Made by a program: the position numbers and the translations under genes. Of a DNA stretch of 64,000 bases, positions 31,300-61,701 are shown piece by piece (within the stretch, counting starts at the first letter, position 1; the number at the start of each line of letters is the position of its first letter). The notes under the pieces are model-generated. The model was not told where the DNA came from. It did not search any database and was given only the letters and a program-made list of their open reading frames with translations. The stretch comes from Candidatus Omnitrophota bacterium (lineage in GTDB: Bacteria; Omnitrophota; Gorgyraeia; Tantalellales; Tantalellaceae). The stretch lies in assembly GCA_049643885.1 (NCBI GenBank), contig JBARQV010000031.1:20949-84948 (forward strand). Direction: 5' to 3'.

Positions 31300-31710
31300 G
31301 TTGGTTGTTGCAGAGCTGTTTTTCGCTCGGATGTAAGTTGCGCAGTGCGGCATATTCCCTACCAGGGCCCCTCCGCCCGGTGTGGATCCTCCCTGTACGG
31401 GAACATGCTGCACTGCGATCTTTACTTCCTCGCTCTCACCGAAAGTAAACCACAGGTGAACCGTGCCCGCTTGGAAATTTAAAGTCCTGTACGGAACGGA
31501 CCAGGCGATAAAATCCTCGATCCGTTTATCTTATTTCTAAGTTGCGCGGCAAAATGTTTGTCCTGTTTTGGACGGGGCGTAATTTTTCCGAGTGGCCACG
31601 GTTCCCGAAGGATCGAAGATCCTGAGGGAGAGCGAGGAAAAATTTTGAGTGAATTTTCCTCGGTGGGGAAAATGAACGTCCCCGGTAAAAACAGGACAAA
31701 CATTTTAAAT
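31300..31710. other. highly structured intergenic region / candidate sRNA locus
   Basis: 530 nt gap with no credible ORF; 26 bp inverted repeat (31552-31577 / 31680-31706), nested GAGGAAAA...TTTTCCTC hairpin, gcagtgcggcat / atgctgcactgc stem, and a 40 nt core shared with 59518-59556. Confidence 0.3.
31359..31399 (+). repeat. conserved 40 nt core CTACCAGGGCCCCTCCGCCCGGTGTGGATCCTCCCTGTACG (copy A)
   Basis: About 37/40 identical to the reverse complement of 59518-59556; in both loci it is embedded between locus-specific inverted-repeat arms. Confidence 0.6.
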
Positions 31711-45271: not shown

Positions 45272-45427
45272 GGTCCGCTCCTTTCTATTTTAGCGGATGA
45301 ATAATAATTATACTTCGTATTGTATATAAAAACGGACGGCTCTGCAAGGTCGGACTTGTTCACTCATATGTTTGACTTATCTGAATGTTGGAAAGGTCCG
45401 GGGGTGTATTCCGTGCTCAGACAGTCC

Positions 45428-45458
45428 AAAAAAAAGCGACCTAAAATCGCTTTTTTTT
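45428..45458. terminator. bidirectional A8-hairpin-T8 terminator nested in an 16 bp inverted repeat
   Basis: aaaaaaaa gcgac ctaaaa tcgc tttttttt; outer IR aaaggtccgggggtgt (45393-45408) / acacccccggaccttt (45476-45491). Confidence 0.55.
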
Positions 45459-45952
45459 GGAAACTCGCACTAAACACACCCCCGGACCTTTCCGTAACCT
45501 TGACAAGCGCAACATCTGACTGAAGAAATTCCTGATTTTTATTGTCTGTCTGTTTCTACCAGGAACGTCCGATTTTCCTCGGCGTTTGTTAAATGTCAAT
45601 AACGGCGAATATATGCCTTCCGTCCCGACAAAAATTCTTAACGCTTTTCGGGACATTTTGAACTGACATGGCAAAACTCGCCCCTCGTTACAGGAATACT
45701 CGGGGCTCGGACAGTTGCCCTGCCTGCACATGTCTAATAGCCACGATAACTTCAGCTTAAAATGCCCGTAAAAGCTAAATTTTTGTAATGGTCCGTCAGG
45801 CATATATTCACCGTCACGGCTATTTATCTCTCTCTGGCGCGGGTTCGGGGAATTATATTCGGCAAAAACAATAAAATCATGGGAAAGATTTTATTGTTTT
45901 GCAGAGCTAATCGCCGTGCCACTCTGACCCTTCCTTCAATTTTTGTAAGGGT

Positions 45953-46029
45953 GGGTGGCGCGACAGTGTCCGAGCACAGCACAAATGAAATGCGGATGCG
46001 CGCAGGACACTGAGCGACAGGACCCGCCC
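45953..46029. repeat. R element copy 1: ~80 nt GC-rich imperfect hairpin repeat
   Basis: GGGTGGCGCGACAGTGTCCGAGCAC...GCGCAGGACACTGAGCGACAGGACCCGCCC; about 85% identical to 61128-61206; lies 20 nt past the giant-gene stop. Confidence 0.7.
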
Positions 46030-46050
46030 TTACGATGGTCGATGGACGAA

Positions 46051-49000
46051 TTACGCTGCTATGAGTAGGCGCCTGAGCGTGGCGTAGGATTTGATAAGCC
46101 TGCTCTTGTCGTATCGCTTGGCGTTGGGCAGGAGTTTGAACACGAGAGTCTTTGCGTCTTCCTTATTAATGGACTCTATGTTCAACTCATCAAGGTTGAG
46201 TGTTTTGTTGCGTATCGTGAGCCTGTTCTTGATACCCGTTTCACCGAGGACGGATTCGCAGTAATCTGCCAGTGTTATCACTACCACCTCAGCGATCGGA
46301 AAATAAGCGTCAGGATGGAATTCTTTATGGTCTATGTACGAAGAATGCACCTGTGATTCGATGTTTCTTAAGTCTTTCCTCGACTCCGTTGACGCAAATA
46401 CAAACACTTCTGTATTTTTATCCGCGATGTGTTCAGCAAGCTCAGTAGGCATGTTTTTGGAGTCGGCCGGAACTATCACGAGATTGTTCAGTATAGCCGC
46501 GTTGGCTTCGTCCTCTTTAAGCTCCCGCAACGCTTCCATGAGGCGTCCCAGAGGATCTTCGTTTGAACCTGCGGCGACTTTCGTGTCAAACGCAAGGACG
46601 ATCTTTTTGTTGAATGTCAGCGAAAGCGCTGCCTCCCTGAGACACTTGGCGAGTTTCTCGGGGATCGTAAGGTCACGCAGGGTTTCATCCGACGTGCTTT
46701 CATCCGGAGGCAGATATCCACCGCCGAAGACATACCATTTATCACCTTTGAAATAGAGCATGTTAGCTCTTGCTAATTCTAATGCTTCTTTGAAATCTAT
46801 GATTCTTAAAACTCCTTTGGGGTCACCAGTAATATCTATAACCTCAAGAGTAGATGCTAACCCTAAATCGCGAATAGAAATAATTTTTTCTACAGCCCTT
46901 TCCCCTCTGATCACGTCTTCGTCCGAATCAAGACCAAGATCTCTAAATTTATCAATGGCCTCCTGAGGTTTCGCTATTTTAATTTTCACTGACAATGAAT
47001 CCGGGGAAAAGCTCGCGGACATAACGTTATCGTCGTTCATGGTCTCCATTTTCTTCTCTCCAAGTCCTTCGTGTTCCGTCAATGCCCTGCATGTATTAGT
47101 GGACAGGTCCCAGAATTTTACATACCCTTCCTTGTCTGCTGAAATGAACTGGTTATCGCCGTATCTTGTTATTGAAGAGACCTTGGAATCATGTCCTTTG
47201 AATAACGAAACCTCTTTAGCATCGAGGTCCCAAACTCTTATTGTCCCGTCTTTGTGGCCAGTTACAATTTTCTTGTCGGTCAGGACCGCCAGAGAAGAAA
47301 CCGATTTGAGCGTTTCGCCCGTAAGGGCCCTGCCAATAAACTTTGTATTTCTATATATCCCCACGGTACCCATGTCCTGGTGGTCATCGTTTTTTCGGCT
47401 GGTGGCTACCAGGTAACTGACCTCTCTTCTGGTTTTGCTGCCACTCTCGCGCCTCATGACGAAGTTCCCATCCGGCAATAATGCCTCTAAAGTGAGAAAA
47501 ACATTACTCCTGGATAATGCAGGAGGTGGATATGCCAAGATGCGTACCTCTCCGGATGCCGTATCTAAAATACCGATATTTCTTTCCTTTTGTATCAACT
47601 GATTAAAACCGATCTTTTCTTCGGAAAGCGGTGTAATAGAACGTATTTTTTCACTTCTATCTTTTGTGGTGGATAAATAGGTTTTAATTGTTTTCGCGGT
47701 AAAATTCATTATCTCGATCTTTGCTCTGGCATAGCTTGTGATAATATTCCCTGAAGGTGACACTTCGAGCGATTTCACTTCTCCGGGACCCTTCATAAGT
47801 ATGTAAACCTTGTTCTTGGTGATATTCCATAATCTTATTGCCCCGTCCCTATGCCCCGTTACGATCCTTTTGTCGCGAGTCTCCAGGGTATCGAGTATTG
47901 CAGTTTTTGTGATAGGACTTGCATACCCGCTGAAAGTGACTTCTATTTCCGTTTCTGTGTTTTTTGTGAATAACATTTGCGCGCTATTGTCCTCCACGGG
48001 AGGGGTCCAACGTTCTTTTGTCTCGAATTTTGAAAGAAGGTCATCCGTATAAAGAAGCCATTCACCATCACTTCTCTGGTTTACCACCGGCCCCGTTATC
48101 TTAGATTCTGCGTCAGGGTCAAGTTTAAAAGGAATGGATTTTGATTCTTGTTTAACCGGCTCCGGTTTGTCGGGTCCGGCAGAGGGTATGTCCGCCGCGC
48201 CGCGCAATGCTGCCTCGGTAGCCGTCATAATGCGGTATATGCCGTTTTCAGCTATTCTTGAGTCCCCCGCAATAATGGTTGCTTCTGAAAGTTCGTTACC
48301 GGACCACCTGAGTTTAAGGCCGGGAGACACGCGGCAGATAATATTCACCTTAAATACCGGTTCGCGCATGCTTTCCGGCCAGAGTATTTCTGAAATAGTG
48401 GATATAATATAATCTTCTGAATCCTGATCTCTTGTGAAGATAACGTCGCCTACCTGGAGAAAATCTAATCTTTCTCTAAAGAGGATTTTGTACACGCATT
48501 CGGCATTTTTGCGGATAAACTTGGAGAGTTGCACCATATCCTGGGGAATGCCTACCACAGCGGTCATGTCACCGGTAGCGATGAAACGTTTTAGATCCGT
48601 AAAGGCCTGGCTCCTTGTTTCATCAAACTGTTCTCTATCCATGATACGGTAGACGCGGCCGGATCTTAATTGATCTTCTGGGATAGAAGATTCCTTTTCA
48701 GTTCCTGGAATCGGTACGAATTCTCTGGGTCCCCGCGCGAAGAGAACTTTATAACCCAGTTTCCCGTCTTCCAGGAGTTTTGTTACAAGGAAGACATATT
48801 CCAATAGATTAGTATTAATGAAATAAATAATGTCACCCTCTTTAAGGTCGTCTGTTTTATCTATTGATGCCGCGGGGTCGACAATACACTCAGCGTTTGC
48901 TTTGATCAGCCGGTTGGCGTCAAAATTTTCGATCGGCATATCAGGCATGTTCGCGATATCGCCGGTAGCGAGAACGCGCAGGAACAGCCGGTAATCACCC

Positions 49001-52000
49001 GTTGAAGTTATCTCCCAGCGTTTTATTCTGCCCTTATTATCAAGGGTTACAACATCTCCGTCAGGCGTCAAATCCACATATTTATGAATGAGAGCGTTTT
49101 CTTCTTTTATTGTCGTGATAAGCTTTCCGTTCAGATCCCAGAGCCTTGCACAGCTATCGCCGTCGGTGGTGCAGATAATGGTATTATTTAATACCCCCGC
49201 CGAATAACAACCTCCTATAGTGATGAATTCACCCTCTAGTGCGCCTTCTATCGGTTCTCCGTCAGGGGTCCACAAAAAAGCATGAGCTTCGAATTTATCT
49301 TCATCAGCGCGAAGCCTCCCTAGAATATTTCCGTTTGGAAGAATTATGGGGGCTTCAATAAATTCGCGCCAATTGTAGCCAAACCAGTTCTCGATCTTTA
49401 AAGTTGCAATAGGGTCACCCTTGGAGGTCCAGATCCTTACTCTGTTATCACTATCAAAGGTAAGGACATTGCCGTTAGGGAGGTTTGCCATGCCTTTTGC
49501 TCCCGCCATTACTAGTTCGATTTCCATAGGTGATAATGAGACTGAAAGATTGGTTGCGTATTTATTGCTACTGTTCCACGCTCGTCCTGATGCAAATATC
49601 CACCCGATTGAAGTGGATATCACATATTTCCATACAGCATCTTTGGAAGAAATTCCCCCTTCTAATCTTGGTGATGTTTGCTCGCCGTCTTCGCTGAAAA
49701 CCGTTTGTTTTCCGTCTTTATCGTAAGTGATATATCTTCCGTCATCAAGACGCGCCGCACCGTAATAGGCCATCTCGGTATTAAGTTTTCCCGGACTCAA
49801 GTCTAATCTTAGTTTACCGTATTGGGTCCATACTCTCGCGTGTTCGTCACTATCGGATGTGAGGATCTCGCCATCAGGAAAGACTGTCGCGCCGTAGGCT
49901 CCCACTATAACTTTATCGACTTTTAAAGCGTCTAAGAGATTGCCGCCCTGGTCCCAGAGCCTTGCACTGTCGTTGTCGATGGTAAGGATATTGCCGTCAG
50001 GGAGGACTTCTATGCCCCGTTCTGCTACTGTGATGTTTCCGGACCACAATATGGCCCACCAGCTTTGCTTTTCCACCCTTTCGGTAGAGAACGCGTCTTT
50101 TATAATAACCCCGTTCTTATCCCATAGCCTGACCTTGCCTTCACTGTCCCGGGTGAGTATGTTACCGCTTGGGAGGATCTCCAGAAACGTAATTTCTCCC
50201 GTATCCTCGAATTTTCCCTTTTTCCCCGGGCCTATTTGGCCTTTCCTTGTGTATAGAGTCGGCAAAGTTCTAATATCCAAAGTTGTCGTATCCATAACAG
50301 GCTTCGGAACCACGCAGGTAAATTTGCCGGCCGGTGTATAGAAGACGATCCTGTTTTCACTGTCGCGAATTATCAAATTGCCGTTGGGGTGGACCTTAAA
50401 TGGTATGTCTCCAACGAGCATCCTGCCTGAAAATTTAAAATCAAAATCCACCACTTTTTGAGCCGTAGAAAGCGGCCCAGTCAGTTTAGGCGTTTCTTCC
50501 GACGCGGAAACTGGAGGTTCGGGTTTTTTGAATTTCAGGACGGAAATATGTCCTATCTCTGCCGCGTTGGCAACGTAGACAGTGTCATCTTTATCTATGG
50601 CCAGGCCTCGCGGTTGTTTGAATTTTCCTTGCAACTGATCTATGATCCCGTTGTCGCCAAAAGCGGGGTTCCGGCTTTTTCCATCCGGATTCAGGACTAT
50701 CATTGCTTCGGCATTACTTATGATCACGTAGATATTCCCTTTACTATCTATGCCTATGCCTTGTTTTACCACTTCCAACAGCTTTCTTTCCCCCAAGTCT
50801 TCAAAATCAAGGGGTATTGTCCCGTCATTTCCAAAAGCCGTATTAAGGCTTCCATCCGGCTTCAGAACGGATATTGTGCCGTTGCCGTCGTTGAGCACAA
50901 AGATATTGCCTTTATTATCTAATGCTATGCCGACAGGTTTACTGAATTTACCGGTTTCCTTTGGTATTGTTCCTGATGACGCGAACCCTGTTTTCAGGGT
51001 CAGATCGGGGTTAAGAACGGTCAGCGATTCGTTCCTCGCATCGACAACCAGGAAATTTCCTTCCTTGTCCCTGACCATGTCAACGGGCGTACTAAGGCCC
51101 AATGGTTCATAATCTACCAGTCCTTTATTGCCGAAATAGCGGTTTAGCTTCTTCCCATCAGGATTTAGGACGGAAAAGTTTCTTCTCCGGTTAACGCCAA
51201 TGATATTACCGGCATCATCTATAACTGCGCATATCAGCCGTTCGATCTTGCCCGATATGATCCCTTTCTTACCGAAATTTCGGTTTAGAGCTTTCTCGTC
51301 CGAATTAACAACCGACATCCAATCGCCTTCGTTACTTACGAAAATATTTCCTTGTTTGTCGACAGCTACATTGAATGGCATTACAAAGTTGCCCGTTTCC
51401 CGCGGGATCACGCTTACTTCCAGCTCGCACTTGACTGTAGTCGGAGATCCGGGTTCTGCCGGCGATTTGACGGGAGTTTTTTCTTCTCCGGGGCGTGGTT
51501 CGATCAAGGCCTCTTCGCCGTATGAATTTTTCAAAGAGTCGCCGGTTTCGCCCGGAACGCCGGGGGCTTCTGCGACGGATACGGCGGACTTTTCCACCGG
51601 GACCTCCACCCAGAACCAGGTCTTGCCTTCTTCCACATCGAAGTTTGTTTCTATGCCGAGTGAATCAAGCTCAAGTTTAGCTTTAAGGAATCCCTGGAGA
51701 GCGCGGGGTGCTGTTTTTTCGATCTCTTCCGCGTTCTCGTATTTTGTCGCGAAAATATGCCGCTGGAGGAATTTGCTGAACCCGGAATTGTAACCGATAG
51801 CTACACATAAACCCCCGTCACTCTGGCCCGCAGCTAATCCCACGAGTTTTCCGGCCTCTTGTGCTTCCTTAAGACGGTCCGGAAGGCTTTCAGGGAGAGA
51901 TTCCCAGTAATCTTTTATCACCATCCTGTCCTTTTCGTAAAGAAAAGACTCAAAATTGGCTCTTTTTGTGATCCTTACAGTTTCTTTTATCCAGCCATCC

Positions 52001-55000
52001 AGCGCTTTCTTTTTCTCGTCCGGGGCTTTGGCGACTATTTCCTTTCGTCCCGCGTTTGCCTCTTTATCTTTGCTGCGGAAATCGGGACTGGTCAATACGA
52101 AATTATCGGTAAGCTGTGAGGGATCAATGGCTTTCCCTGCGCCTATCGCGACTTCTTTTCTGAAACCGAATATCTCTTCCAGGTCGCCTATCGTGATCGC
52201 TTCGGCAGGTCTTTCCTTAAAGCGCTCGGCAATACCCGTTATTGCGGCCCTGTCCCGCTCGCCCAGTTCTTCGACTTCTTGCGCTTCTTCCCGCTTTTGA
52301 TGTTCAAAAACGATCTTTCCTTTTTCAAATTTCGCCGTTATCGTGTCGCCCCTTCGTATAGCGGCTATATTTTGTGTCATGTAAGTTGAAAGCGGGTTCT
52401 CAAAATGCCTTTTTACTGCGTCTGCCATGGGACGCGCGCCGTATTCAGCTATGTATCCTTTTTCGGCAAGCATCCTGTTGATGCTGGCTTTTTCCTCATC
52501 ATTCCGGCCGATAACGAGGTTTATTCCCTGCTTATCCCTGAAGCGTTCCATCGTTTCCGACAAGAAGAGCTGGACTATCTTTGTGAGCGAATCCAGGGGA
52601 AGCGGGTTAAATACCAGCGTGCCATCGAGGCGGTTCAGAAATTCCGGTCTGAAGAACCTTTTCACGGCATTGCTGACCGAAACGTTCATTTTTTCTATGA
52701 ACGCTTTTATCTTTTCCGGGTCACCGCTTTTGACGGCTTCTTCCATTTCTGGATATAACGATACGGGATGAGGCCTGCCGCCCTCTATCACGATGTCCTT
52801 CATTCCCAGGTTCGTGGTAAGTATGATGATCGATTCATTGAACTTCACGGTGTCGCCCCGGTTTGAGGTAAGCCTTCCGTCTTCCATCACCTGGAGAAGT
52901 ATATTCATCACATCAGCGGCCGCTTTGTCTATTTCGTCGAAAACGATAACCGTCTTCGGATATTTTTTCATATGTTCAAAAAGGTAACCCTCGCCTTCAT
53001 CATATCCCACGAATCCCGGGGGAGCGCCTATAAGCCGTGAAAGGTCTTCCCTGGTCTTGTATTCGCTCATGTCGATCCGGAGCATTTTCATGCCCAGTGT
53101 ATCGGCAAGCGTTTGAGCGGTCTGTGTCTTGCCCACCCCGGTAGGCCCGGCGAAAACAAATGCCCCAAGAGGCGCTTTCGGTGACTTCAGCCCCGCCTTG
53201 GCGACCCTTACTACACTGCTTACGGTTGAAAGCGAGTCATCCTGGCCGACTACGCGGTTCTTGAGGTTGTCCTCAAGAGCGAGGAAGTTCGCCCTTTCGT
53301 CCCGCTTTAATGAATCCGTATCGATCTCTACCTGGCCTCTCCTTGCTTCAAGCTCGCTTATAAATTCAAGCGCCTCATCCTGCCCGATGGCGGGTGACGA
53401 TTTTTCTCCCATTCTTTCCTTGGAAGCGTTGACGCGCCGGACAAGCGTCTTTATTTCATCGATCCCTAAAAGGTCTTCTTCTGAAACTTCTTCGTTCGCG
53501 GCGGCGTCCTGGAGTTCTTCTTTGAGCTGTTCCAGGCTGTCCCTGAGTTCCACCGCGACGCGCGATTCTTTCTGCCGCCTTTCGAGGGCGAGCCCGCTGA
53601 ACCACCTGTTAAGCACCTCTACCGCAGAATATGACGAGAAATACTGTTCCCACAGCCGGACCGCCACGCGCATGGCTTCAAAACTTATCTGGATACCGGG
53701 CTTGCCGTTACTTGTCTTTTTCTCTATATAATCCTTTATAAAGAGATGCAGGTTTTCCATTACGGCGCTTGCTTCCTGCGGGAGCATGTCGACCAGCGTA
53801 AAATGCTGGTCAAAGGAATCGTCTTCGGTGATCGACTGGCGCGACGATGTCATGACAAAAGAGACCGTCTTGAGTCCCCTGAACATCCTCAGGAAATACC
53901 CGAGCATGAACGGGTTTACCCTTACCTTTTCAAGCTCGTCCTTGACGTCGTCAAAATCGATCACAATGATGGTCTTGAGGCCTTTTTTCTCGCCGTCTTT
54001 TTCGATAAGCTCGGCCAGTTCTCTCATCTTTATCTCGAAATAACCCACCATGGAGAAGTAACTTTTAAGGGACTCCAGTTTCAAGCGAAGGATACGGGTA
54101 TCAGTAAATCCTGAGATCTCCCCGCGCGACGCGCGCGCGACAAAACTGTCGACCACCATCCTCTTGGCCAGGATAGAATCGCTCAGGACCAAAGGATAAT
54201 TCCTTCTTTTCTGGTTAAGGACGGATGAAAGGCGGCCGATAGTCTCGAACGGCGGGTAAAGGTCTTCTAAAACGCCTTCGGCCGCGTCAAGGCTCAGGTT
54301 CTCAAACGCCCCGTTCAGTTCCTTGCGGAGCTTCTCCTGTTCCGCTATCGACTGCTCTTGCATTTCGTCCTGCATTTTCCTGGCGCTTTCTTCATTGCCG
54401 CTTTTTCTGGTCGCCAGTATCGTCCTTTTCCTTACCAGGAGTTCAAGCTCCGTCCGTTCTTTTATCATCCTTTCCGATATTGCCTGCTTCTGCGAATCGC
54501 TGCTTGTCCTGCGCAGCTGGTTGTCCATTATCTTCTGGTTGGCCTGCAGCTCCTGTATCCTTACTTCGATCTTTTTGAGTTCAGTGTCGATATTTTCGGG
54601 ACTTAAGTCCATTTCCGGCAGGCTTTCGGGGTCGGCGATGTCTATTTCGTATTTTTTACGCATATCTTCAAGCAGTGTCTGCCGGATCTCCATTGCCCTC
54701 GAGTCTTCTTTATCTGGGACCGAGAATGATTTAGCCATGACCTGAATTGATATATTTTTGATGTCGAGCAGTTCATATAATTTCTCGGCAGGCGTTTCTT
54801 TAGTCCCTTCTTTCTTTAAACGGTCTATGGCCTTCCTGTGCCGTGCCTGTTCTGTTTCCTGTTTTTCTTTTTTGGTCTTAAATATGGCTTTTCCGTCTGA
54901 AACGTCAGCTTCTATTGTTTCTCCTTTATTTATAGAGTCGGCAAGGATAAGGTCAGCCAGCGGGGCCAGCACTATCCTTTTTAAAGACCTTTCCAGGGGC

Positions 55001-58000
55001 CTGGCGCCGTTCGTGACATCGTATCCTTCCTCCAGGACCTTTTCGCGAAGAGTTTGACTCAGGCGAAGTTCCCCGTAACCTTCCGCGGAAAGGAGTTTAT
55101 TGACGTTCTTGAGCTTTATATCCAGTATTTTTTCCAGGTCTTCCTTTGAAAGAGGATTAAAATTGATTATGTTCGGCAGGCCTATGCGGCCGATCAATTC
55201 CGGCCGCAAGCCGGCTTTTACGGCTGCAATGACTTCATCTCTTACTTTCCGCCTTAGGGCTTCCAGTTCTTCCAGCGCCTCTTCTCCTCCCCGGTCCTTG
55301 AGCATGGCGATCTTGACATACTTTTCGTTGAGCGCTCTTGTTCTCTCCGGGTCGGCCGCATACCCTTCGCTGAAACCTATATTCGAAGTCATTATTATGA
55401 TAGTGTTCCTGAAGTTGGCCATTCTTCCCTTCCCGTCGCGAAGCTCGCCGTTATTAAGGACCTGCAGGAGCAGGTCGAGCGTCTTGGGATGGGCTTTTTC
55501 CACCTCATCCAGAAGGACGACGCTGTATGGCCTTTTCAGGACGTGATTGGTAAGTTGCCCGCCTTCTTCGTACCCGACGTATCCCGGGGGCGAGCCGATC
55601 AGTTTATATGAATCGCTCTGGTTCATGTATTCACTCATGTCGATGCGCACCATGGCGTCTTCCGAGCCGAACATGTGCCGGGCAAGGGAACGCGCGAATT
55701 CCGTTTTTCCCACACCGGTAGGCCCGACAAGGAGGAATGCCCCGATAGGCAGGTTCCCGCTCGCGCCGATCACTCTTCTGCGCGAGAATGCCTGGTAGCT
55801 GTCATTGATGGCTTTGTCCTGGCCGATAAGCATGCCCTGGAGTTTAGGGACATAATCCTTGAGAAGCTCGTCTTCGGAAGCAAGTATCTCGTAGAGCGGG
55901 ACGCCGCTGTCTTCGGATATCTGTTTAGCTATTGTCTCTATAGTTATTTCCCATTTTTTGCTTTTGGTGATGTCTTCTATGAATTGCCGGTTCTCTTCCA
56001 GCTCCTTCTCGACCGCTTCCTGCTCGCTCAAAAGCCTGTCCAATGAAAGTTCCAGGAATTTTTGCTGCTCAGCGTCTTTCTCGTCCGCGCCGCACTTTAT
56101 CAGTTCTTTTGATGTCCTCAGTATCCTTTCCAGTATATCCGCTCTTTTTGCTTCAAGCCTTGATGCGGTCGTGAACGCGCGCGTGATTATCCTGTCGATG
56201 ACTTCCTGAAGTTTGTTTACCGAAAGCCCCTGTGGATAATGCTTCTGGCTCAGTCTGAGGGCTTCATCGAGGATCTTTCTTGGAACCTGGACTTTTACGC
56301 CTTCGGGGATGATGTCTTTATACGCGGAATTTATCCTGCGGGTGAAACTCTTCGCGATCCTCAACAGGTCATATTCCGGGGGCGCCCGCATGTCCAGGAC
56401 AGAAAACTTCGGTTCAAGGCGCTTGTCTTTCGCGAGGACAGTATCATAAAGCTGCGGATTGCCCAGGATGACCACGCTTATATTTTCGTTTTCGATTGCT
56501 TCCTTCAGCTGGAAATACAAGCTGGCCATCATGCCCGATTTCATTTTCTGGACGTCATAAAAATCCTGGAAGTTCAGGACAAGGACTGATCTTTCGTTCT
56601 TGCGCGCGGCCTTTAACGCGCTTGTTAGCTTGGCCAGTTCCATTTCAAGCTGGCCGGGTATAGCGAGATTCTCGGCGAATCGGGCGGTATTTATCTCGAA
56701 AAATTTCGCTTTTCTCAAGTTATCAAGCCCTGTTGAAGTCTCCCCTTTGCGCACTACTATTCCTTCTATCAATCCCTGGCATGCGATAGGGTCGCCTACG
56801 ATCATGACGTTGTTCATCTCCGGGTCCGTGATCTGGTCGTTCAGAAAAGCCGCGTAATTCGCCACGTAATACGTGTCGTCTATCTTTCCGTCTTCAACCA
56901 GTTCATCCAGGTCGTTGGTGTATTGTTTGATGTAATCGGGATTCGCTTGACCCTGGCCTTGAGGCCCGGCAGGAACACTCTCGCCTAATTCGAGCAGGAT
57001 CAATATAGGCGCAGCTATTATCCCCGCTAAGAACATCCATTCAAGAGGCATGATCCCGGCTGTTGTCGCGTTCACTCCCAGGTCAAGGGTCATCCCGAAG
57101 CCATGCTTAAGTGTAAAATAAGCCCCGATGCCGATCCACCATAACATATGATGGTGGTGATGGCCGCTCAGATGCTGTTTTAAGTGCGCCAGTTTTTGCG
57201 CGAGAATGGATCCTGTGGTTTGTTGGGCAGCCCCGTCGGTTCCGTTAGGTTTATCGTCACTTTCGCCGGGCGTGATCTCCTTGCCGGCTTTTTCGTATAT
57301 CCTTTCAAGGGCTCCCCTGCCCCTGTCGCTTCTTAAAACCTTGCCTATCGCGGCCGGGTTATCCTGGACCAGGACTTTTTGCTGGATAGCCTGGATCACC
57401 GCGCCCATTACTTCCTCAAAGTTCTTGTCTTTTTTATCGGACCTTAAATAACGGACAACCGTCTTTATCGTTACTTCCCTTATATCGTGCTTCTCCTCAT
57501 CGCTTACCTCGGTTTCCAGGTCATCTTCGCCCTCTTCTTCAAGGGCGTCGGCAAGTTCGTCCAGTTCTTCGCCCATCTCTTCGACGGCTTTCTCGACCTC
57601 TTCGACGATCCTGTCGGCATCTTCTTCGTTTTCTTCCTTTTCTTTTTCCCGTCTCAATGCTTCCAGATAGTACATCCTGTCGCATATGCTTAATATTGAT
57701 GGGACCAGAACGGCAAGAAGAATGACCACTATCGGCAGGCCGCCTATCATTGACGCGCCGGCCGTGTGGCAACCGGTCATGAATGAGCCGCCTATAACGG
57801 CCAGGATAAGCCCAAGAAGGGTCTTTCCGGGGCCGGATTTCTTTTCTTTAGCGGGTATTTTCTGGTCTATAAAGATCCTTAGGGCTTTGCCCAATAATCC
57901 CTTACTCATCCCCTTTCCGGGAAAATGGTCCGGAAAGAACTCCTGCTGGGCAAGGATAGCGTGGTAATGGCTAAGAGTCGGGCAGATAAGTTCATGCAGA

Positions 58001-58842
58001 AGATACTCGTCGATCAGATGCGGGCGGCACATATTTTCAAGTTCCGCGATAAAGTCAGTGGCAAGGAAGATCTCCTTATCTCCGGGGTAATGACGTCCCA
58101 GGAAGAAATCATCTTTTCCTTCTACGATAGATTTTAACCCATAGATCGTGTATCCACCGCTTTCTATTTTTTCTATTAATTCTTCAAGCGCCCTTCTGTG
58201 TTCAGGAGCCAGGCTGAATAGGCTGACGCCTTGAGTGAATTTTTCAAGCAGGCTTACCAGTCGTTCTTTATACTCGTCGGTTATGTCTTCTTTCGGGGCT
58301 TGTTCGAACTTTTTAGCGGACAATTCGCCCTGATGGATAAACCCGTCGCCCGTTTTCCCTTCTTCTGCTGTTTTTTCATCTATTTCGGGCTTGCTTTCGG
58401 GTTCTGCGGGTTCAGCCGCGGCCGGCTTTTCGCCTTTCTTTCTTATCGCGGTATCAAAATCGTTTTCAGGGTCTATCACGACTTCGAATTCAATAAAATC
58501 TTTTTTGCCCGGGATGATCCATTTTCCGGTTTCGTCCTGCCTCTTTTCATTGCTGTCAAAGAATAAATGCACTTTTTCACCGTTCACTTCAGGAAAAAGG
58601 TGTTCAGTGATCTCTTCAAAGGGTTTATGGAGGCCGCGCAAGTAAACCTGCACGGCAACCTGGACCGAAAAAAGATTTGCGGGTTCCCAAAAGTTGCTGG
58701 CAGCACTAAGATACATATTTGCCGCGCCTCTCTGGAATATGTCAGGATTCGCCCATGTAACGTTGTTAACAGTGAACAGGCACACTATCACCACGGCTAT
58801 TATCTTTATCCATGCCCTATTCCTGTTTTTCGCGTTTTCCAT
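46051..58842 (-). CDS. giant membrane-anchored multidomain protein (~4263 aa): 2x ClpB-like AAA+ modules (degenerate NBD1 + intact NBD2), NHL beta-propeller, multiple WD40-like repeats, unknown C-terminal domain
   Basis: Start ATG 58842 with SD AAGGTGA (the longest ORF runs to 59061, but that extension passes through the leader hairpins and repeats). Signal-anchor AWIKIIAVVIVCLFTV plus two TM hairpins. Degenerate NBD1 NNVMIVGDPIACQGL. Walker A GPTGVGKT at nt ~55702-55725 and ~53130-53153; Walker B VVLLDEVEKAHP and VIVFDEIDKAA; GARPLER and GARPMAD sensor-2. NHL repeats at nt ~50450-51450. WD40-like repeats (e.g. HRDGAIRLWN, HKDGTIRVWD) at nt ~47100-50400. Confidence 0.85.
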   Translation of the reverse strand: MENAKNRNRAWIKIIAVVIVCLFTVNNVTWANPDIFQRGAANMYLSAASNFWEPANLFSVQVAVQVYLRGLHKPFEEITEHLFPEVNGEKVHLFFDSNEKRQDETGKWIIPGKKDFIEFEVVIDPENDFDTAIRKKGEKPAAAEPAEPESKPEIDEKTAEEGKTGDGFIHQGELSAKKFEQAPKEDITDEYKERLVSLLEKFTQGVSLFSLAPEHRRALEELIEKIESGGYTIYGLKSIVEGKDDFFLGRHYPGDKEIFLATDFIAELENMCRPHLIDEYLLHELICPTLSHYHAILAQQEFFPDHFPGKGMSKGLLGKALRIFIDQKIPAKEKKSGPGKTLLGLILAVIGGSFMTGCHTAGASMIGGLPIVVILLAVLVPSILSICDRMYYLEALRREKEKEENEEDADRIVEEVEKAVEEMGEELDELADALEEEGEDDLETEVSDEEKHDIREVTIKTVVRYLRSDKKDKNFEEVMGAVIQAIQQKVLVQDNPAAIGKVLRSDRGRGALERIYEKAGKEITPGESDDKPNGTDGAAQQTTGSILAQKLAHLKQHLSGHHHHHMLWWIGIGAYFTLKHGFGMTLDLGVNATTAGIMPLEWMFLAGIIAAPILILLELGESVPAGPQGQGQANPDYIKQYTNDLDELVEDGKIDDTYYVANYAAFLNDQITDPEMNNVMIVGDPIACQGLIEGIVVRKGETSTGLDNLRKAKFFEINTARFAENLAIPGQLEMELAKLTSALKAARKNERSVLVLNFQDFYDVQKMKSGMMASLYFQLKEAIENENISVVILGNPQLYDTVLAKDKRLEPKFSVLDMRAPPEYDLLRIAKSFTRRINSAYKDIIPEGVKVQVPRKILDEALRLSQKHYPQGLSVNKLQEVIDRIITRAFTTASRLEAKRADILERILRTSKELIKCGADEKDAEQQKFLELSLDRLLSEQEAVEKELEENRQFIEDITKSKKWEITIETIAKQISEDSGVPLYEILASEDELLKDYVPKLQGMLIGQDKAINDSYQAFSRRRVIGASGNLPIGAFLLVGPTGVGKTEFARSLARHMFGSEDAMVRIDMSEYMNQSDSYKLIGSPPGYVGYEEGGQLTNHVLKRPYSVVLLDEVEKAHPKTLDLLLQVLNNGELRDGKGRMANFRNTIIIMTSNIGFSEGYAADPERTRALNEKYVKIAMLKDRGGEEALEELEALRRKVRDEVIAAVKAGLRPELIGRIGLPNIINFNPLSKEDLEKILDIKLKNVNKLLSAEGYGELRLSQTLREKVLEEGYDVTNGARPLERSLKRIVLAPLADLILADSINKGETIEADVSDGKAIFKTKKEKQETEQARHRKAIDRLKKEGTKETPAEKLYELLDIKNISIQVMAKSFSVPDKEDSRAMEIRQTLLEDMRKKYEIDIADPESLPEMDLSPENIDTELKKIEVRIQELQANQKIMDNQLRRTSSDSQKQAISERMIKERTELELLVRKRTILATRKSGNEESARKMQDEMQEQSIAEQEKLRKELNGAFENLSLDAAEGVLEDLYPPFETIGRLSSVLNQKRRNYPLVLSDSILAKRMVVDSFVARASRGEISGFTDTRILRLKLESLKSYFSMVGYFEIKMRELAELIEKDGEKKGLKTIIVIDFDDVKDELEKVRVNPFMLGYFLRMFRGLKTVSFVMTSSRQSITEDDSFDQHFTLVDMLPQEASAVMENLHLFIKDYIEKKTSNGKPGIQISFEAMRVAVRLWEQYFSSYSAVEVLNRWFSGLALERRQKESRVAVELRDSLEQLKEELQDAAANEEVSEEDLLGIDEIKTLVRRVNASKERMGEKSSPAIGQDEALEFISELEARRGQVEIDTDSLKRDERANFLALEDNLKNRVVGQDDSLSTVSSVVRVAKAGLKSPKAPLGAFVFAGPTGVGKTQTAQTLADTLGMKMLRIDMSEYKTREDLSRLIGAPPGFVGYDEGEGYLFEHMKKYPKTVIVFDEIDKAAADVMNILLQVMEDGRLTSNRGDTVKFNESIIILTTNLGMKDIVIEGGRPHPVSLYPEMEEAVKSGDPEKIKAFIEKMNVSVSNAVKRFFRPEFLNRLDGTLVFNPLPLDSLTKIVQLFLSETMERFRDKQGINLVIGRNDEEKASINRMLAEKGYIAEYGARPMADAVKRHFENPLSTYMTQNIAAIRRGDTITAKFEKGKIVFEHQKREEAQEVEELGERDRAAITGIAERFKERPAEAITIGDLEEIFGFRKEVAIGAGKAIDPSQLTDNFVLTSPDFRSKDKEANAGRKEIVAKAPDEKKKALDGWIKETVRITKRANFESFLYEKDRMVIKDYWESLPESLPDRLKEAQEAGKLVGLAAGQSDGGLCVAIGYNSGFSKFLQRHIFATKYENAEEIEKTAPRALQGFLKAKLELDSLGIETNFDVEEGKTWFWVEVPVEKSAVSVAEAPGVPGETGDSLKNSYGEEALIEPRPGEEKTPVKSPAEPGSPTTVKCELEVSVIPRETGNFVMPFNVAVDKQGNIFVSNEGDWMSVVNSDEKALNRNFGKKGIISGKIERLICAVIDDAGNIIGVNRRRNFSVLNPDGKKLNRYFGNKGLVDYEPLGLSTPVDMVRDKEGNFLVVDARNESLTVLNPDLTLKTGFASSGTIPKETGKFSKPVGIALDNKGNIFVLNDGNGTISVLKPDGSLNTAFGNDGTIPLDFEDLGERKLLEVVKQGIGIDSKGNIYVIISNAEAMIVLNPDGKSRNPAFGDNGIIDQLQGKFKQPRGLAIDKDDTVYVANAAEIGHISVLKFKKPEPPVSASEETPKLTGPLSTAQKVVDFDFKFSGRMLVGDIPFKVHPNGNLIIRDSENRIVFYTPAGKFTCVVPKPVMDTTTLDIRTLPTLYTRKGQIGPGKKGKFEDTGEITFLEILPSGNILTRDSEGKVRLWDKNGVIIKDAFSTERVEKQSWWAILWSGNITVAERGIEVLPDGNILTIDNDSARLWDQGGNLLDALKVDKVIVGAYGATVFPDGEILTSDSDEHARVWTQYGKLRLDLSPGKLNTEMAYYGAARLDDGRYITYDKDGKQTVFSEDGEQTSPRLEGGISSKDAVWKYVISTSIGWIFASGRAWNSSNKYATNLSVSLSPMEIELVMAGAKGMANLPNGNVLTFDSDNRVRIWTSKGDPIATLKIENWFGYNWREFIEAPIILPNGNILGRLRADEDKFEAHAFLWTPDGEPIEGALEGEFITIGGCYSAGVLNNTIICTTDGDSCARLWDLNGKLITTIKEENALIHKYVDLTPDGDVVTLDNKGRIKRWEITSTGDYRLFLRVLATGDIANMPDMPIENFDANRLIKANAECIVDPAASIDKTDDLKEGDIIYFINTNLLEYVFLVTKLLEDGKLGYKVLFARGPREFVPIPGTEKESSIPEDQLRSGRVYRIMDREQFDETRSQAFTDLKRFIATGDMTAVVGIPQDMVQLSKFIRKNAECVYKILFRERLDFLQVGDVIFTRDQDSEDYIISTISEILWPESMREPVFKVNIICRVSPGLKLRWSGNELSEATIIAGDSRIAENGIYRIMTATEAALRGAADIPSAGPDKPEPVKQESKSIPFKLDPDAESKITGPVVNQRSDGEWLLYTDDLLSKFETKERWTPPVEDNSAQMLFTKNTETEIEVTFSGYASPITKTAILDTLETRDKRIVTGHRDGAIRLWNITKNKVYILMKGPGEVKSLEVSPSGNIITSYARAKIEIMNFTAKTIKTYLSTTKDRSEKIRSITPLSEEKIGFNQLIQKERNIGILDTASGEVRILAYPPPALSRSNVFLTLEALLPDGNFVMRRESGSKTRREVSYLVATSRKNDDHQDMGTVGIYRNTKFIGRALTGETLKSVSSLAVLTDKKIVTGHKDGTIRVWDLDAKEVSLFKGHDSKVSSITRYGDNQFISADKEGYVKFWDLSTNTCRALTEHEGLGEKKMETMNDDNVMSASFSPDSLSVKIKIAKPQEAIDKFRDLGLDSDEDVIRGERAVEKIISIRDLGLASTLEVIDITGDPKGVLRIIDFKEALELARANMLYFKGDKWYVFGGGYLPPDESTSDETLRDLTIPEKLAKCLREAALSLTFNKKIVLAFDTKVAAGSNEDPLGRLMEALRELKEDEANAAILNNLVIVPADSKNMPTELAEHIADKNTEVFVFASTESRKDLRNIESQVHSSYIDHKEFHPDAYFPIAEVVVITLADYCESVLGETGIKNRLTIRNKTLNLDELNIESINKEDAKTLVFKLLPNAKRYDKSRLIKSYATLRRLLIAA

Positions 58843-58857
58843 ATTGTTGTCACCTTT

Positions 58858-58883
58858 TAGCTCGATAAATCGAGCAACTACAT
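58858..58883. promoter_or_regulatory. palindromic hairpin motif copy 1 (GCTCGA-TAAA-TCGAGCAACTAC) in the giant-gene leader
   Basis: Part of a 29 nt direct repeat ttttagctcgataaatcgagcaactacat that occurs twice, 47 nt apart, directly upstream of the RBS. Confidence 0.6.
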
Positions 58884-58902
58884 TTGTTGTATCGGGTCGT
58901 TT

Positions 58903-58930
58903 TTTAGCTCGATAAATCGAGCAACTACAT
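58903..58930. promoter_or_regulatory. palindromic hairpin motif copy 2
   Basis: Identical 29 nt repeat. Confidence 0.6.
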
Positions 58931-58932
58931 CC

Positions 58933-59002
58933 CACGAACGACGAACTACGACCGACTACCGACGATCGACGAACCACGATCGACGAAATACGACCGACGA
59001 TT
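58933..59002. repeat. 10x tandem heptanucleotide repeat (ACGANCG)
   Basis: acgaacg acgaact acgaccg actaccg acgatcg acgaacc acgatcg acgaaat acgaccg acgattc; perfect 7 nt periodicity over 70 nt in the giant-gene leader. Confidence 0.8.
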
Positions 59003-59003
59003 C

Positions 59004-59059
59004 CGGTCTGGGGTGGTATTAACCAGCGCAGGAGGTTAATACCACCTTTATACCAGACC
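59004..59059. other. leader hairpin (imperfect 22 bp inverted repeat) with AGGAGG in the loop
   Basis: ccggtctggggtggtattaacc ... ggttaataccacctttataccagacc. Confidence 0.5.
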
Positions 59060-59063
59060 ATGT

Positions 59064-59085
59064 ATCCCTTCGCTTCGCTCAGGAT
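59064..59085. repeat. 19 nt motif CCTTCGCTTCGCTCAGGAT (copy 2; copy 1 at 37888-37910)
   Basis: Exact 19 nt match between two intergenic regions. Confidence 0.5.
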
Positions 59086-59095
59086 AATTCGACTA

Positions 59096-59127
59096 GCGGT
59101 TTGCGTTCGCTGTGCTTCGCAAACCGC
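59096..59127. other. perfect 10 bp inverted repeat gcggtttgcg / cgcaaaccgc hairpin
   Basis: Seen directly in the sequence. Confidence 0.5.
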
Positions 59128-59136
59128 AGTCTCATT

Positions 59137-59178
59137 AAAAAAAAGCCAGGCTGACCTTCTTTAGGTAGCCTGGCTTTC
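59137..59178 (-). terminator. intrinsic terminator on the minus strand (A8 - agccaggct...agcctggct)
   Basis: 9 bp GC-rich stem followed by T8 on the minus strand; would terminate a minus-strand transcript starting near 59580. Confidence 0.6.
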
Positions 59179-59499
59179 TAGAAAACAATTTCATCTAGAC
59201 CCTGCGCTTTGCGCCCCTACGTCACCATAGGTTTGCCCCGTTAGAGATTTATCCCGTTAGAGTTTATTTTCTAATGGGATGTTCTCCCTAACGTGGCTCG
59301 CCCCATCATCTCTAACGGGGTTTGCCTTTATCTAGAATTGTATATTATTCTACCACAAATTAAAGTTAGGTCAAGAGAAAGTAAGTTAGCTATTTTATTC
59401 TTAACGGGATGTAAGTTATTTATTCATGTGAGTTAGGGAGGTGTAATTGCCGGATGCACAATACACGTACGAGTTTCTATTTGTGGAACGAAGCATTAA

Positions 59500-59575
59500 C
59501 GGGATATGGGGGTGTTTCGTACGGGAGGATCCACACCAGGCGGAGGGGCCCGGTAGAAACACCCCCATATCCCGT
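59500..59575. repeat. hairpin B carrying conserved 40 nt core copy B (59518-59556) between 19 bp arms
   Basis: cgggatatgggggtgtttcg [core] gaaacacccccatatcccg; the core reverse-complement matches 31359-31399. Confidence 0.6.
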
Positions 59576-59691
59576 ATTAAATTGAGCACAAACCTGTTCT
59601 GATTTTAAAACTAAAACTGTACCCTTTTCTCTGGGGACGGTTTCTAAATTGATCCTAGACCCACCCCTATGTAAATACGTATAATATACAC

Positions 59692-61011
59692 GTGAAAATA
59701 CGGGCTGAAATGAGGAAGATCTTTACGAACGTTTTTGTATTCCTGGTAGTTTTTATTCTGATCTCGGAATGCGCCGATCTTTTCTACGTTTATAAGAACA
59801 CCACCGATATGCCCGGAAAATTCGGATGGGAAGACCGGGCTGACTTCAGCGTGTACTGGGAAGCAGGGTTCAATCTATCTCAAAGGGACATGTCCCACCG
59901 GGACAGGTCAGATTACCCGGTTTACGACCTGAACGAGCCCTTTCATCACTTCAGGTACTCCCCTTTCTTCGCGTTCCTCATGATCCCCTTCGGCATGATC
60001 CGTTATTCGCGTGAAGCTTTGTTCTGGTGGTACTTGCTCCTTAATATCCTGTTCCTGGCATCATTTTTTCTATTTTCAAAAGAACTCCGGTTGGATTTTA
60101 AGGCACGAGAGGGCCAAAGATGTATTGTCATGTGGGCTGCTTTTATCGGGACCCTGAGATACTACCTGATGAACATGAGGCAGGGTCAGACGGATGTCAT
60201 AGTGGCTTTTCTTTTCGCGCTTCTTCTCGTATCCTATCTCAGGGATCGGGATCTTGTATCCGGCCTTATCATTGCCTTGATACTCCAGATGAAACCGTCA
60301 TTTTTTCCTGTTTTGATCTATTTTCTATTCATAAGAAAGATCAGGATCGCCGTATACACGGTTATTATATTCGCCTTGCTGCAGCTTTTGCCGGCGTTCC
60401 TGGTCGGTATTAACGAAGCAGTTATGCTTTTCAAGGAGTGGATCGATATGCTGCGGATGTCGGTCCCGTCGCAGGTCCTTAATTTCAAGAACTATTCCGT
60501 GCCTTATGCCGTAACCGTCCAGCTCATGAAGATCAATGTGATAAGGGCTATTATATCTCCGAGGGCGCTTATCTATGCACTGAGCGCGATATCCGCCCTG
60601 GCTGTTTACGCGCTTACCGCCCGGTTCAGGCGAAGGGTCCTTGAACGTGACGAGAAACGATTCAGGTATCTGGAAATATCTATACTTATAATGACCTCCC
60701 TTCTCTTTTCTTCTTTGACCTGGGAAGCACATTTTACGGCTCTTCTAGTTCCTATCGGGACAGCTGTCTATTTCGCGATGAATAGCAGTAAACAAAAAGT
60801 AATTTACGCCGCCTTGGGCGCGTACCTGGCGCTAAGCCTTTTTGGGACGGATCTTACGACGTGGATCCCCGTAATTGGAGGCGTGAGATTCATTAATATT
60901 TCAATAGCGACGTTTTTCCTGGCATTCGCGGTGGTGTTGGGGTACAGGGACAACATTCTGTCCACCGTCGACAGTCCACAGTCCACGGCGTCAGGTAGAG
61001 GTAGAGATTGA
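59692..61011 (+). CDS. polytopic membrane protein, GT-C-type glycosyltransferase-like (DUF2029/GT87-like)
   Basis: About 12 TM helices; FHHFRYSPFFAFLMIPF motif region typical of DUF2029; the only plus-strand gene. Confidence 0.5.
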   Translation: MKIRAEMRKIFTNVFVFLVVFILISECADLFYVYKNTTDMPGKFGWEDRADFSVYWEAGFNLSQRDMSHRDRSDYPVYDLNEPFHHFRYSPFFAFLMIPFGMIRYSREALFWWYLLLNILFLASFFLFSKELRLDFKAREGQRCIVMWAAFIGTLRYYLMNMRQGQTDVIVAFLFALLLVSYLRDRDLVSGLIIALILQMKPSFFPVLIYFLFIRKIRIAVYTVIIFALLQLLPAFLVGINEAVMLFKEWIDMLRMSVPSQVLNFKNYSVPYAVTVQLMKINVIRAIISPRALIYALSAISALAVYALTARFRRRVLERDEKRFRYLEISILIMTSLLFSSLTWEAHFTALLVPIGTAVYFAMNSSKQKVIYAALGAYLALSLFGTDLTTWIPVIGGVRFINISIATFFLAFAVVLGYRDNILSTVDSPQSTASGRGRD

Positions 61012-61022
61012 TGACGCGGGGA
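60993..61022. repeat. direct repeat copy 1 (includes the last codons and stop of the 59692..61011 gene)
   Basis: aggtagaggtagagattgatgacgcgggga; about 27/30 identical to 61235-61266. Confidence 0.65.
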
Positions 61023-61234
61023 AATTTTCCTTCTGTAAAAACAATAAAATCAAAGGGACCCATACTGGATCCTCGATACTCAAGCGCGTAGCGTAAAGAG
61101 CATAGCGCAGAGCGGTCTGCGGTGGGCGGGCGGCGCTACAGTGTCCGAGCACCGCACAAGCCAGTGGCGCGGAGGCGCGCAGGACACTGAGCGACAGGAC
61201 CCGCCCACTAGATGCTCCACGAACCACACCAGAT
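61023..61234. mobile_element. MITE-like ~212 bp insert flanked by ~30 bp direct repeats and carrying R element copy 2
   Basis: Bracketed by direct repeats 60993-61022 and 61235-61266; contains the structured R2 repeat; no ORF. Confidence 0.3.
61128..61206. repeat. R element copy 2
   Basis: GGGCGGCGCTACAGTGTCCGAGCACCGCACAAGCCAGTGGCGCGGAGGCGCGCAGGACACTGAGCGACAGGACCCGCCC. Confidence 0.7.
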
Positions 61235-61266
61235 AGAGGTATAGGTAGAGATTGATGACGCGGGGA
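61235..61266. repeat. direct repeat copy 2
   Basis: agaggtataggtagagattgatgacgcgggga. Confidence 0.65.
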
Positions 61267-61291
61267 GTTGCCCGATAAATCGGGCAACTAC
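61267..61291. promoter_or_regulatory. palindromic hairpin motif copy 3 (GTTGCCCGA-TAAA-TCGGGCAAC) with a compensatory change
   Basis: Perfect 9 bp palindrome; relative to copies 1 and 2, the T/A pair is replaced by C/G on both arms; overlaps the stop of the 61288..61701 gene. Confidence 0.55.
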
Positions 61292-61701
61292 TTGATGACC
61301 CGGAAGGAATGGAAGCTTCTTCTGCTCTTTCCGACGCCTCGGTAAACTTGCCGCAATGACCAGGTATAGACCTTCCCCGGCAGGAACATTTCCGCGTCCA
61401 GAGAGATCTCATATTTATTGCCTGGAACGCGTTCTTTGAATAACAGTGTGCGTTCGAGCATGTCAAAGCCTTCGTATAACCTGAAGTCGTAATATTTTCT
61501 TCCGAGACGCAAGCCCTCATGCGGGCTCCACTTGAATTCAAGTGCTTCTTTTCCCGAGAGGTTTACTTCTGTTGTGGTAGGCGAGAGCAGTCTGGGCATT
61601 GGGACATAATCGGCCCTGCCACCGTAGCTTGACATGCTTACCTGGGCGTAAGCATAGGTGGCTAGTAATAAGATAGCTGCGGAAAATATCGCCTTTTTCA
61701 T
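61288..61701 (-). CDS. secreted protein, hypothetical
   Basis: Signal peptide MKKAIFSAAILLLATYAYAQ. Confidence 0.45.
   Translation of the reverse strand: MKKAIFSAAILLLATYAYAQVSMSSYGGRADYVPMPRLLSPTTTEVNLSGKEALEFKWSPHEGLRLGRKYYDFRLYEGFDMLERTLLFKERVPGNKYEISLDAEMFLPGKVYTWSLRQVYRGVGKSRRSFHSFRVIK

Follow-up and report, generated by a model that had tools for sequence, protein, structure and literature searches.

REP and REPIN elements are GC-rich extragenic palindromes located at operon ends and between cistrons, where their RNA hairpins protect upstream mRNA; a REPIN is a doublet in inverted arrangement, its hairpin measuring ~80–110 nt. The Correia elements (CREE/NEMIS) of Neisseria and similar miniature inverted-repeat transposable elements (MITEs) are non-coding palindromes of ~100–150 nt beside genes, with which they are co-transcribed; they form long hairpins in the mRNA and break short-read assemblies. 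RNA hairpins of the REP, ERIC and Correia families impede 3'-exonucleolytic decay, attenuate transcriptional read-through and uncouple translation. To our knowledge, no such repeats have been catalogued in Omnitrophota, and a literature search for them in this phylum found none. Here, we analyze a GC-rich hairpin repeat, R, which resembles these elements in its palindromic form and its place beside genes and occurs twice in a 64,000-nt stretch of a Candidatus Omnitrophota genome (GenBank assembly GCA_049643885.1, contig JBARQV010000031.1, positions 20,949 to 84,948; hereafter the window), on either side of a giant gene. We consider it probable that R is a lineage-restricted, non-coding, dispersed palindromic repeat of the ERIC, Correia or REPIN kind; it is not a member of any named repeat family. 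Its four known copies lie at gene boundaries or in spacers resembling 3' untranslated regions (UTRs), and both orientations occur with respect to transcription as well as strand composition. A previously undescribed palindromic intergenic repeat family in an uncultivated phylum is, taken alone, a modest result. R also breaks short-read assemblies beside the giant gene, in a phylum whose giant genes are notorious for fragmented assembly.

Sequence, structure and distribution of R

The copies in the window (R1 and R2) and those found on another scaffold of the same organism (R3 and R4, in a 19.7-kb sequence from ZINK19-1 scaffold_24, here L022) are as follows; the covariance model behind the scores was built from R1, R2 and R3.

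45949..46029, plus strand: R1 hairpin core, 81 nt (101.7 bits, E 8e-19)
61124..61206, plus strand: R2 hairpin core, 83 nt (114.4 bits, E 2e-21)
45937..46047, plus strand: R1 extended unit: the hairpin flanked on the left by a diverged extension and on the right by the conserved extension TTAC-GATGGTCGATGG
61106..61224, plus strand: R2 extended palindromic unit, whose left extension GAGCGGTCTGCGGT pairs with its right extension ACTAGATGCTC
L022:8656-8744, sense to the operon: R3, between the glycosyltransferase genes GT9a and GT9b (103 bits)
L022:10455-10543, sense to the operon: R4, between a Macro-domain gene and the glycosyltransferase gene GT9c (97 bits)
Candidate ends of the R unit: TTGGATYNNTGGGGGCGGG ... 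CCCGCCCNNNNGATGCTGGATG

The first-pass annotation, made from the letters of the window, had described R1 and R2 as ~85% identical imperfect hairpins with an inner and an outer stem, lying on the same strand about 15.2 kb apart, and alignment and folding bear this description out. Both copies are in direct orientation on the plus strand, 15,175 nt apart, and their cores begin 4 nt before the starts originally given. Mean column identity is 85% over 119 alignment columns, and blastn reports 79% over 101 nt with the 3' tail included. The 30-mer GCGCAGGACACTGAGCGACAGGACCCGCCC is identical in both copies and occurs twice in the window against 0.00 expected from 100 shuffles; the longest exact common run is 32 nt. 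On either strand, R1 and R2 fold as long imperfect hairpins of −46 to −57 kcal/mol (z −5.0 to −6.5), with an inner stem CAGTGTCC/GGACACTG and an outer stem GGGYGGG/CCCGCCC. The GC content of R is 71–75%, compared with ~47% for the genome. The R2 core is identical in six other assemblies, and no credible open reading frame (ORF) was found inside R.

The conserved unit is longer than the hairpin first noted, reaching ~115–120 nt with its flanking extensions, and blastn homology among the four copies spans ~93–105 nt. For R1, the extended limits come from blastn homology (45942-46044 to R4 and 45949-46047 to R2) together with the alignment, and they place the right end 3 nt from the stop codon of the giant gene. 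For R2, homology covers 61118-61212 against R3 and 61124-61216 against R4, and the sequence 61105-61240 folds at −64.8 kcal/mol (z −4.1). The right extension, NNNN-GATGCTGGATG, is recognizable in all four copies; the left extension, TTGGATYNNTGG, is present in R3 and R4 and has diverged in R1 and R2. Together, the extensions lengthen the predicted stem into an imperfect palindrome of ~115–120 nt. The 5' flanks read TGTAA, GCGGT, CATTG and TCGTG. The hairpin is maintained across copies: standard pairs fill 97.8% of the pair cells of the consensus structure, as opposed to 32–51% when the partners are slid. Three pairs of the apical stem are compensated, within a set of copies whose 80–95% identity gives covariation almost no power.

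R3 and R4 were reached through a protein search in which the joined six-frame translations of R1 and R2 served as one query. Its one match was a partial GT9 glycosyltransferase carrying a mistranslated R as its N-terminus, and members of that protein's cluster led to L022. Both copies sit in a lipopolysaccharide (LPS)-core heptosyltransferase operon and recur in four contigs of metagenome-assembled genomes (MAGs; L019, L020, L021 and L025). By blastn, R2 is 92–95% identical to R3 and R4 but only 79% identical to R1; R3 and R4 are ~89% identical to each other. The plus strand of R is antisense and G-poor in the window, whereas it is sense and G-rich in L022, and this opposite placement at the two loci implies that R bears no fixed relation to transcription or replication. 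A replication-strand bias of the kind known from IS200/IS605 elements was ruled out on the same strand compositions.

Altogether, four copies at two loci were seen in ~99 kb of the genome. A covariance model scan of the window with filters off returned only R1 and R2, and no further copy was found in the 7.7 kb added on each side. In several Logan runs, contigs terminate at 61161 and others begin at 61180, inside R2, and the 30-mers at these positions are absent from R1, R3 and R4. Given that Logan assembles with k=31, these ends suggest at least one more copy almost the same as R2; alternatively, R2 itself may vary within the population. The covariance model found no R in the loci of three relatives (L023, L024 and L040). 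Exact 19–22-mers of R gave only chance matches, in coding or unrelated contexts, in GTDB representative genomes, JGI metagenomes and IMG/VR, the first 19-mer pattern being one that would miss the R3 and R4 variants. Rfam 15 contained no overlapping match, either at the gathering threshold or with E values up to 10, and blastn against plasmid and phage collections found none.

Probable insertion sites and genomic surroundings

The closest relative lacking R that could be fetched (L040, GCA_046759285.1) carries a syntenic LPS-core operon, in which gene order is unchanged between the Lip_A_acyltrans and PfkB genes, and its GT9b is 69% identical. Its GT9a–GT9b gap is 2 nt and its Macro–GT9c gap is 1 nt, with no match to the covariance model. 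In the R-bearing genome, the same gaps measure 124 nt (R3) and 296 nt (R4). Because the relative's junctions are this short and free of R in a syntenic operon, R3 and R4 are best read as insertions at gene boundaries, and the bracketed genes are inherited rather than carried as cargo. Additionally, GT9b and GT9c are only 28% identical as proteins, whereas the repeats that flank them are ~89% identical; the repeats are thus much younger than the adjoining genes and were not duplicated together with them, which rules out co-duplication of R with GT9 genes. The first-pass annotation had allowed that the repeats might mark a REP-like family, and had proposed a search for further copies. Two more copies at an unrelated locus, their other orientation and the 1–2-nt junctions of the R-less relative all support such a family. 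A hairpin of about −50 kcal/mol placed between cistrons that abut within 1–2 nt in the relative should change their relative expression.

In the window, R1 and R2 adjoin the following genes and leader element.

46051..59061, minus strand: giant ORF, context rather than part of R, 4336 aa (called as 4263 aa in public assemblies)
59161..59247, minus strand: c-di-GMP-I riboswitch, within the giant gene's leader (53.6 bits; gathering score 35)
59710..61011, plus strand: GT87 (DUF2029) glycosyltransferase gene, with R2 downstream in sense orientation
61288..61701, minus strand: 137-aa gene, N-terminus resembling a signal peptide; its stop and the predicted minus-strand terminator enclose R2

The giant ORF combines two ClpB-like AAA modules (AAA_2, AAA_5 and ClpB_D2-small) with WD40/beta-propeller arrays, and from its leader sequence this Omnitrophota protein appears to be under c-di-GMP control. 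The gene calls agree with the earlier description of R1 and R2 as lying just 3' of minus-strand genes and flanking the giant gene, its leader and a DUF2029-like gene. R1 begins 21 nt past the stop of the giant ORF. R2 lies between the convergent GT87 and 137-aa genes, 112 nt after the stop of the former and 81 nt after that of the latter. On the minus strand, each copy lies after a stop codon and before a terminator-like site: at R2, a hairpin with a U-tract that was called by the terminator scan; at R1, a site read by eye that the scan did not call. These sites are separate from R, ~45–55 nt further downstream on the minus strand. An intrinsic terminator within R itself was ruled out by the lack of a T-run after R on either strand.

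On the reading of R as a dispersed repeat, the copies would have arrived by insertion, either through non-autonomous transposition or through patch-wise copying. R would then be co-transcribed with its neighbors, as all four copies sit where transcription is expected. The resulting RNA hairpin, with a predicted stability of −46 to −65 kcal/mol, could form a barrier to 3'-to-5' decay, act as a partial terminator that attenuates read-through or as a processing site, and break translational coupling between neighboring cistrons.

Several points weigh against this reading. The insertion argument compares a single relative, and the polarity of R3 and R4, gain rather than loss, follows from parsimony; the RNA-level effects are argued by analogy. 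Flank alignments judged against 500 shuffles revealed no consistent target-site duplication across the four copies, with none at R1 and R3. R lacks the GTAG-type head of REP elements, and no cognate transposase was found in the ~99 kb. The only transposase in the window is an IS110-family ORF (DEDD_Tnp_IS110 and Transposase_20; 22247-23437, minus strand) in a stretch of 41.6% GC, and a link between it and R was ruled out, the longest shared words being 6–8 nt and no better than in shuffles. Only four copies were seen directly, the fifth being inferred, and the high copy number typical of REP is not evident in these ~99 kb. R1 with R2, and R3 with R4, are each paired in direct orientation. Glycosyltransferase genes adjoin three of the four copies, an adjacency that rests on two independent loci and that purely random insertion does not predict. 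Finally, a simple mobile unit of 120 nt does not explain two features of the R1 and R2 surroundings, namely a module (U) at conserved spacing from R and a duplication (X) around R2.

45847..45900, minus strand: U1, containing a 34-nt module in common with the R2 locus (45847-45879) and an exact 16-mer at 45864-45879
61019..61072, minus strand: U2, the counterpart of U1, with a terminator-like hairpin (61072-61056) followed by CTTTGATTTTATTGTTTTT
61000..61022, plus strand: X1, a 23-nt exact direct repeat covering the final codons of the GT87 gene with its stop
61244..61266, plus strand: X2, the second X copy, on the other side of R2 and 244 nt from X1

The U modules align over 34 nt at 82% identity (45847-45879 versus 61019-61052; E 2e-4), with a 14-nt inverted match. 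Read on the minus strand, U1 forms an AT-rich hairpin (arms 45865-45878 and 45887-45900) leading into the T-rich run TGATTTTATTGTTTTT, which is the site read by eye downstream of R1. The 34-nt module, which includes the exact 16-mer AAAAACAATAAAATCA, supplies on that strand the U-tract of the terminator-like hairpins. U lies upstream of R on the plus strand, at a spacing of 85 nt for R1 and 87 nt for R2, and the 70 nt separating U from R are unrelated between the R1 and R2 loci. The X repeat extends to 28 identical positions of 29 (~40 nt loosely) with 0 expected by chance, and its flank alignment score of 53 was reached by none of 500 shuffles. X could be a long target duplication or a scar of patch copying. 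Taken together, U and X suggest either copying of a ~215–244-nt patch (R with the terminator) from one locus to the other or a crossover inside R–U.

The flanks of R4 contain a weak 21-nt direct repeat, ~210 nt apart (L022:10339-10359, GATGATCAGTTTATTAGGAAG; L022:10551-10571, GATGTTAAGTTTATGATGAAG; 3 of 500 shuffles), whose right copy overlaps the start of GT9c and which recalls X around R2.

Other features of the window were recorded alongside these. Two MAG contigs and ENA scaffold_70 end at ~23.0–23.5 kb, at the IS110-family element, which is probably multi-copy. In the non-coding gap upstream of R1, a weak inverted match to the R core at 45679-45730 (blastn against R2: 67% over 55 nt, E 0.03; R3 is similar) may represent a decayed piece of R. 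This 780-nt gap, between R1 and an aspartate decarboxylase gene, also holds an imperfect inverted repeat (45356-45527; 61-nt arms, 72% complementary) around a terminator-like site, AAAAAAAAGCGAcctaaaaTCGCTTTTTTTT, which might act bidirectionally; a break at 45427 is seen in the Logan contigs L014 and L017. Three small hairpins of the form GTTGC(T/C)CGATAAATCG(A/G)GCAAC, with one compensated pair (T–A versus C–G), lie at 58855-58883, 58902-58930 and 61265-61293. The first two form a tandem pair shortly before the called start of the giant gene, and the third overlaps the 137-aa gene at its stop codon; the MAG contig L033 begins at 58860, inside the pair. A second repeat family is represented by two intergenic copies, 59499-59575 (plus strand) and 31340-31418 (inverted), which have in common a GC-rich core of ~38 nt (GTACRGGGAGGATCCACACCRGGCGGAGGGGCCCKGGTA; 29 nt at 97%). 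The core is ringed by perfect stems of 19–20 bp whose sequences are unrelated between the copies, which means either full compensation of the stem or insertion of the core into palindromes that already existed.

Alternative explanations

Among the alternatives, the one that survives best, though we regard it as unlikely, takes R to be a strand-specific structured RNA, cis-regulatory or small, encoded on the plus strand and tied to cell-envelope glycosylation genes. R2, R3 and R4 are sense to the adjoining glycosyltransferase genes (GT87; GT9a/GT9b; GT9c), and R3 and R4 end 17 nt and ~20 nt ahead of the downstream start codon, respectively. The compensated pairs of the apical stem would suit an RNA, as would the single substitutions that yield G–U wobbles, three on the plus strand and one on the minus strand. 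However, this 3-to-1 asymmetry is not significant, covariation is nearly powerless at such identity among the copies, and the adjacency to glycosyltransferase genes comes from just two independent loci. R1 is antisense to everything near it: no plus-strand gene lies within 680 nt upstream, and no convincing promoter was found. R3 and R4 are missing from the relative's orthologous operon, and hence R is no conserved regulator there. The small-RNA family that the first-pass annotation had also entertained fails to gain support, as R keeps no fixed strand and matches nothing in Rfam.

A second explanation, which we judge very unlikely, regards R1 and R2 as functional boundaries of a 15-kb module (the giant gene, its riboswitch and the GT87 gene), that is, as recombination sites for excision, integration or inversion. 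Its variants are site-specific recombination, an attC-like system, and Campbell-type integration of a circle carrying one R–U copy. The direct orientation of R1 and R2 fits this account, as does the second locus, also a direct pair, around GT9b and the Macro gene. The position of U at the same spacing of 85–87 nt is what a crossover within R–U would leave, and it is the U and X features that leave recombination a small probability. A 2026 preprint describes many Omnitrophota giant-gene loci with mobile-element flanks (10.64898/2026.06.07.730766). Moreover, gene order downstream of GH3 differs in the loci of relatives whose GH3 is 70–72% identical, and the neighborhood of the giant gene is evolutionarily fluid. 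In one relative an unrelated gene of >1900 aa lies downstream of GH3 (L024:3157-8894), and in another ion-channel and ATPase genes do (L023:11660-21659). A conserved giant gene beside GH3 in relatives was considered and rejected, the large gene of L024 being unrelated.

Assembly evidence tells against such a module. The same locus was recovered in GCA_049642145.1, GCA_049645405.1, GCA_049644805.1, GCA_049644745.1 and GCA_049645485.1, in ENA ERZ23498717 and in several Logan runs. Contigs from at least eight assemblies contained no empty site and no R1–R2 deletion or circle junction; those spanning either end of the segment all keep the arrangement of the window, and the remaining ones stop within R. 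Breaks inside R1, R2 and R3 are seen in both MAG and Logan contigs. No integrase or recombinase lies in or adjoining the segment, its GC content is unremarkable, and R lacks the attC core sites RYYYAAC and GTTRRRY. The genes that R3 and R4 bracket are syntenic and tightly packed in the R-less relative. With the spanning contigs in unchanged order, inherited genes between R3 and R4, and no more than 32 nt of perfect identity between R1 and R2, the earlier suggestion that these repeats mediate excision, inversion or duplication finds no support. At most, R1 and R2 are a weak substrate for rare homologous deletion. We infer that their direct flanking of the giant and GT87 genes is a coincidence of two independent insertions, and the case cautions that two flanking repeats are no proof that a giant-gene locus is mobile.

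Slightly less credible still is a local segmental duplication, in which R1 and R2 would be remnants of one ~215-nt region of 3' UTR and terminator, with no mobile family involved. The homology of U, R and the tail at conserved spacing in both loci speaks for it, as does the placement of both copies between a minus-strand stop and a terminator-like site (by eye at R1). Yet R3 and R4, on another scaffold, have nothing beyond the unit of ~105–120 nt in common with R1 and R2, and they occupy junctions that are 1–2 nt long in the relative. In addition, R2 is closer to them than to R1, and the U–R spacers of R1 and R2 are unrelated in sequence. For the R core, R3 and R4 largely refute this duplication.

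Equally little credence goes to a dedicated signal at cell-surface loci (the giant gene, GT87 and the LPS-core GT9 genes), whether as paired sites for recombination or phase variation or as a common RNA or DNA hairpin read by one factor that would coordinate envelope and giant-protein genes; in that event the direct pairing and the conserved R–U spacing would be functional. If true, such a paired signal would offer a handle on how these bacteria vary or regulate giant surface proteins. The remaining candidate, an ops/JUMPstart element, was ruled out on sequence features.

Comparison with known repeat families

The attC sites of integrons, including the Vibrio cholerae repeat (VCR), resemble R in being imperfect hairpins of 60–140 nt that are similar within a genome, directly oriented and placed so as to bracket genes. 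However, the hairpin of R ends in GGGYGGG/CCCGCCC rather than in RYYYAAC/GTTRRRY, GTTAAGT occurs only in the tail of R4, and the gene lists contain no integrase. The genes bracketed by R are syntenic in a relative without R, and R occurs in both orientations relative to genes. The attC interpretation was ruled out, as R has neither the core sites nor mobile cassettes.

Compared with REP and REPIN elements, which R matches in hairpin size, R has no GTAG-type head and its arms are not themselves short palindromes. No RAYT transposase (Y1_Tnp) was present among the Pfam calls of the ~99 kb. Correia elements occur in hundreds of copies and differ further in their IHF site, their TA duplication and their terminal inverted repeats of 26 nt, whereas R displays no consistent duplication, and no parent insertion sequence or termini emerged for it from the ~99 kb. 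With MITEs in general, R shares a length below 300 nt, a non-coding and imperfectly palindromic sequence, dispersed copies and the contrast between filled and empty sites; it departs from them in the target-site duplication of fixed length.

ERIC elements (also known as IRU) belong to Enterobacteria and Vibrio, are not GC-extreme, have a TA-type target duplication and show no sequence similarity to R. Their copy number is low to moderate. Like R, they are imperfect palindromes, of ~70–127 nt, that sit in intergenic or 3' UTR positions in either orientation relative to transcription; their sites are transcribed, their presence varies between related genomes, and they probably influence mRNA stability as hairpins in the transcript.

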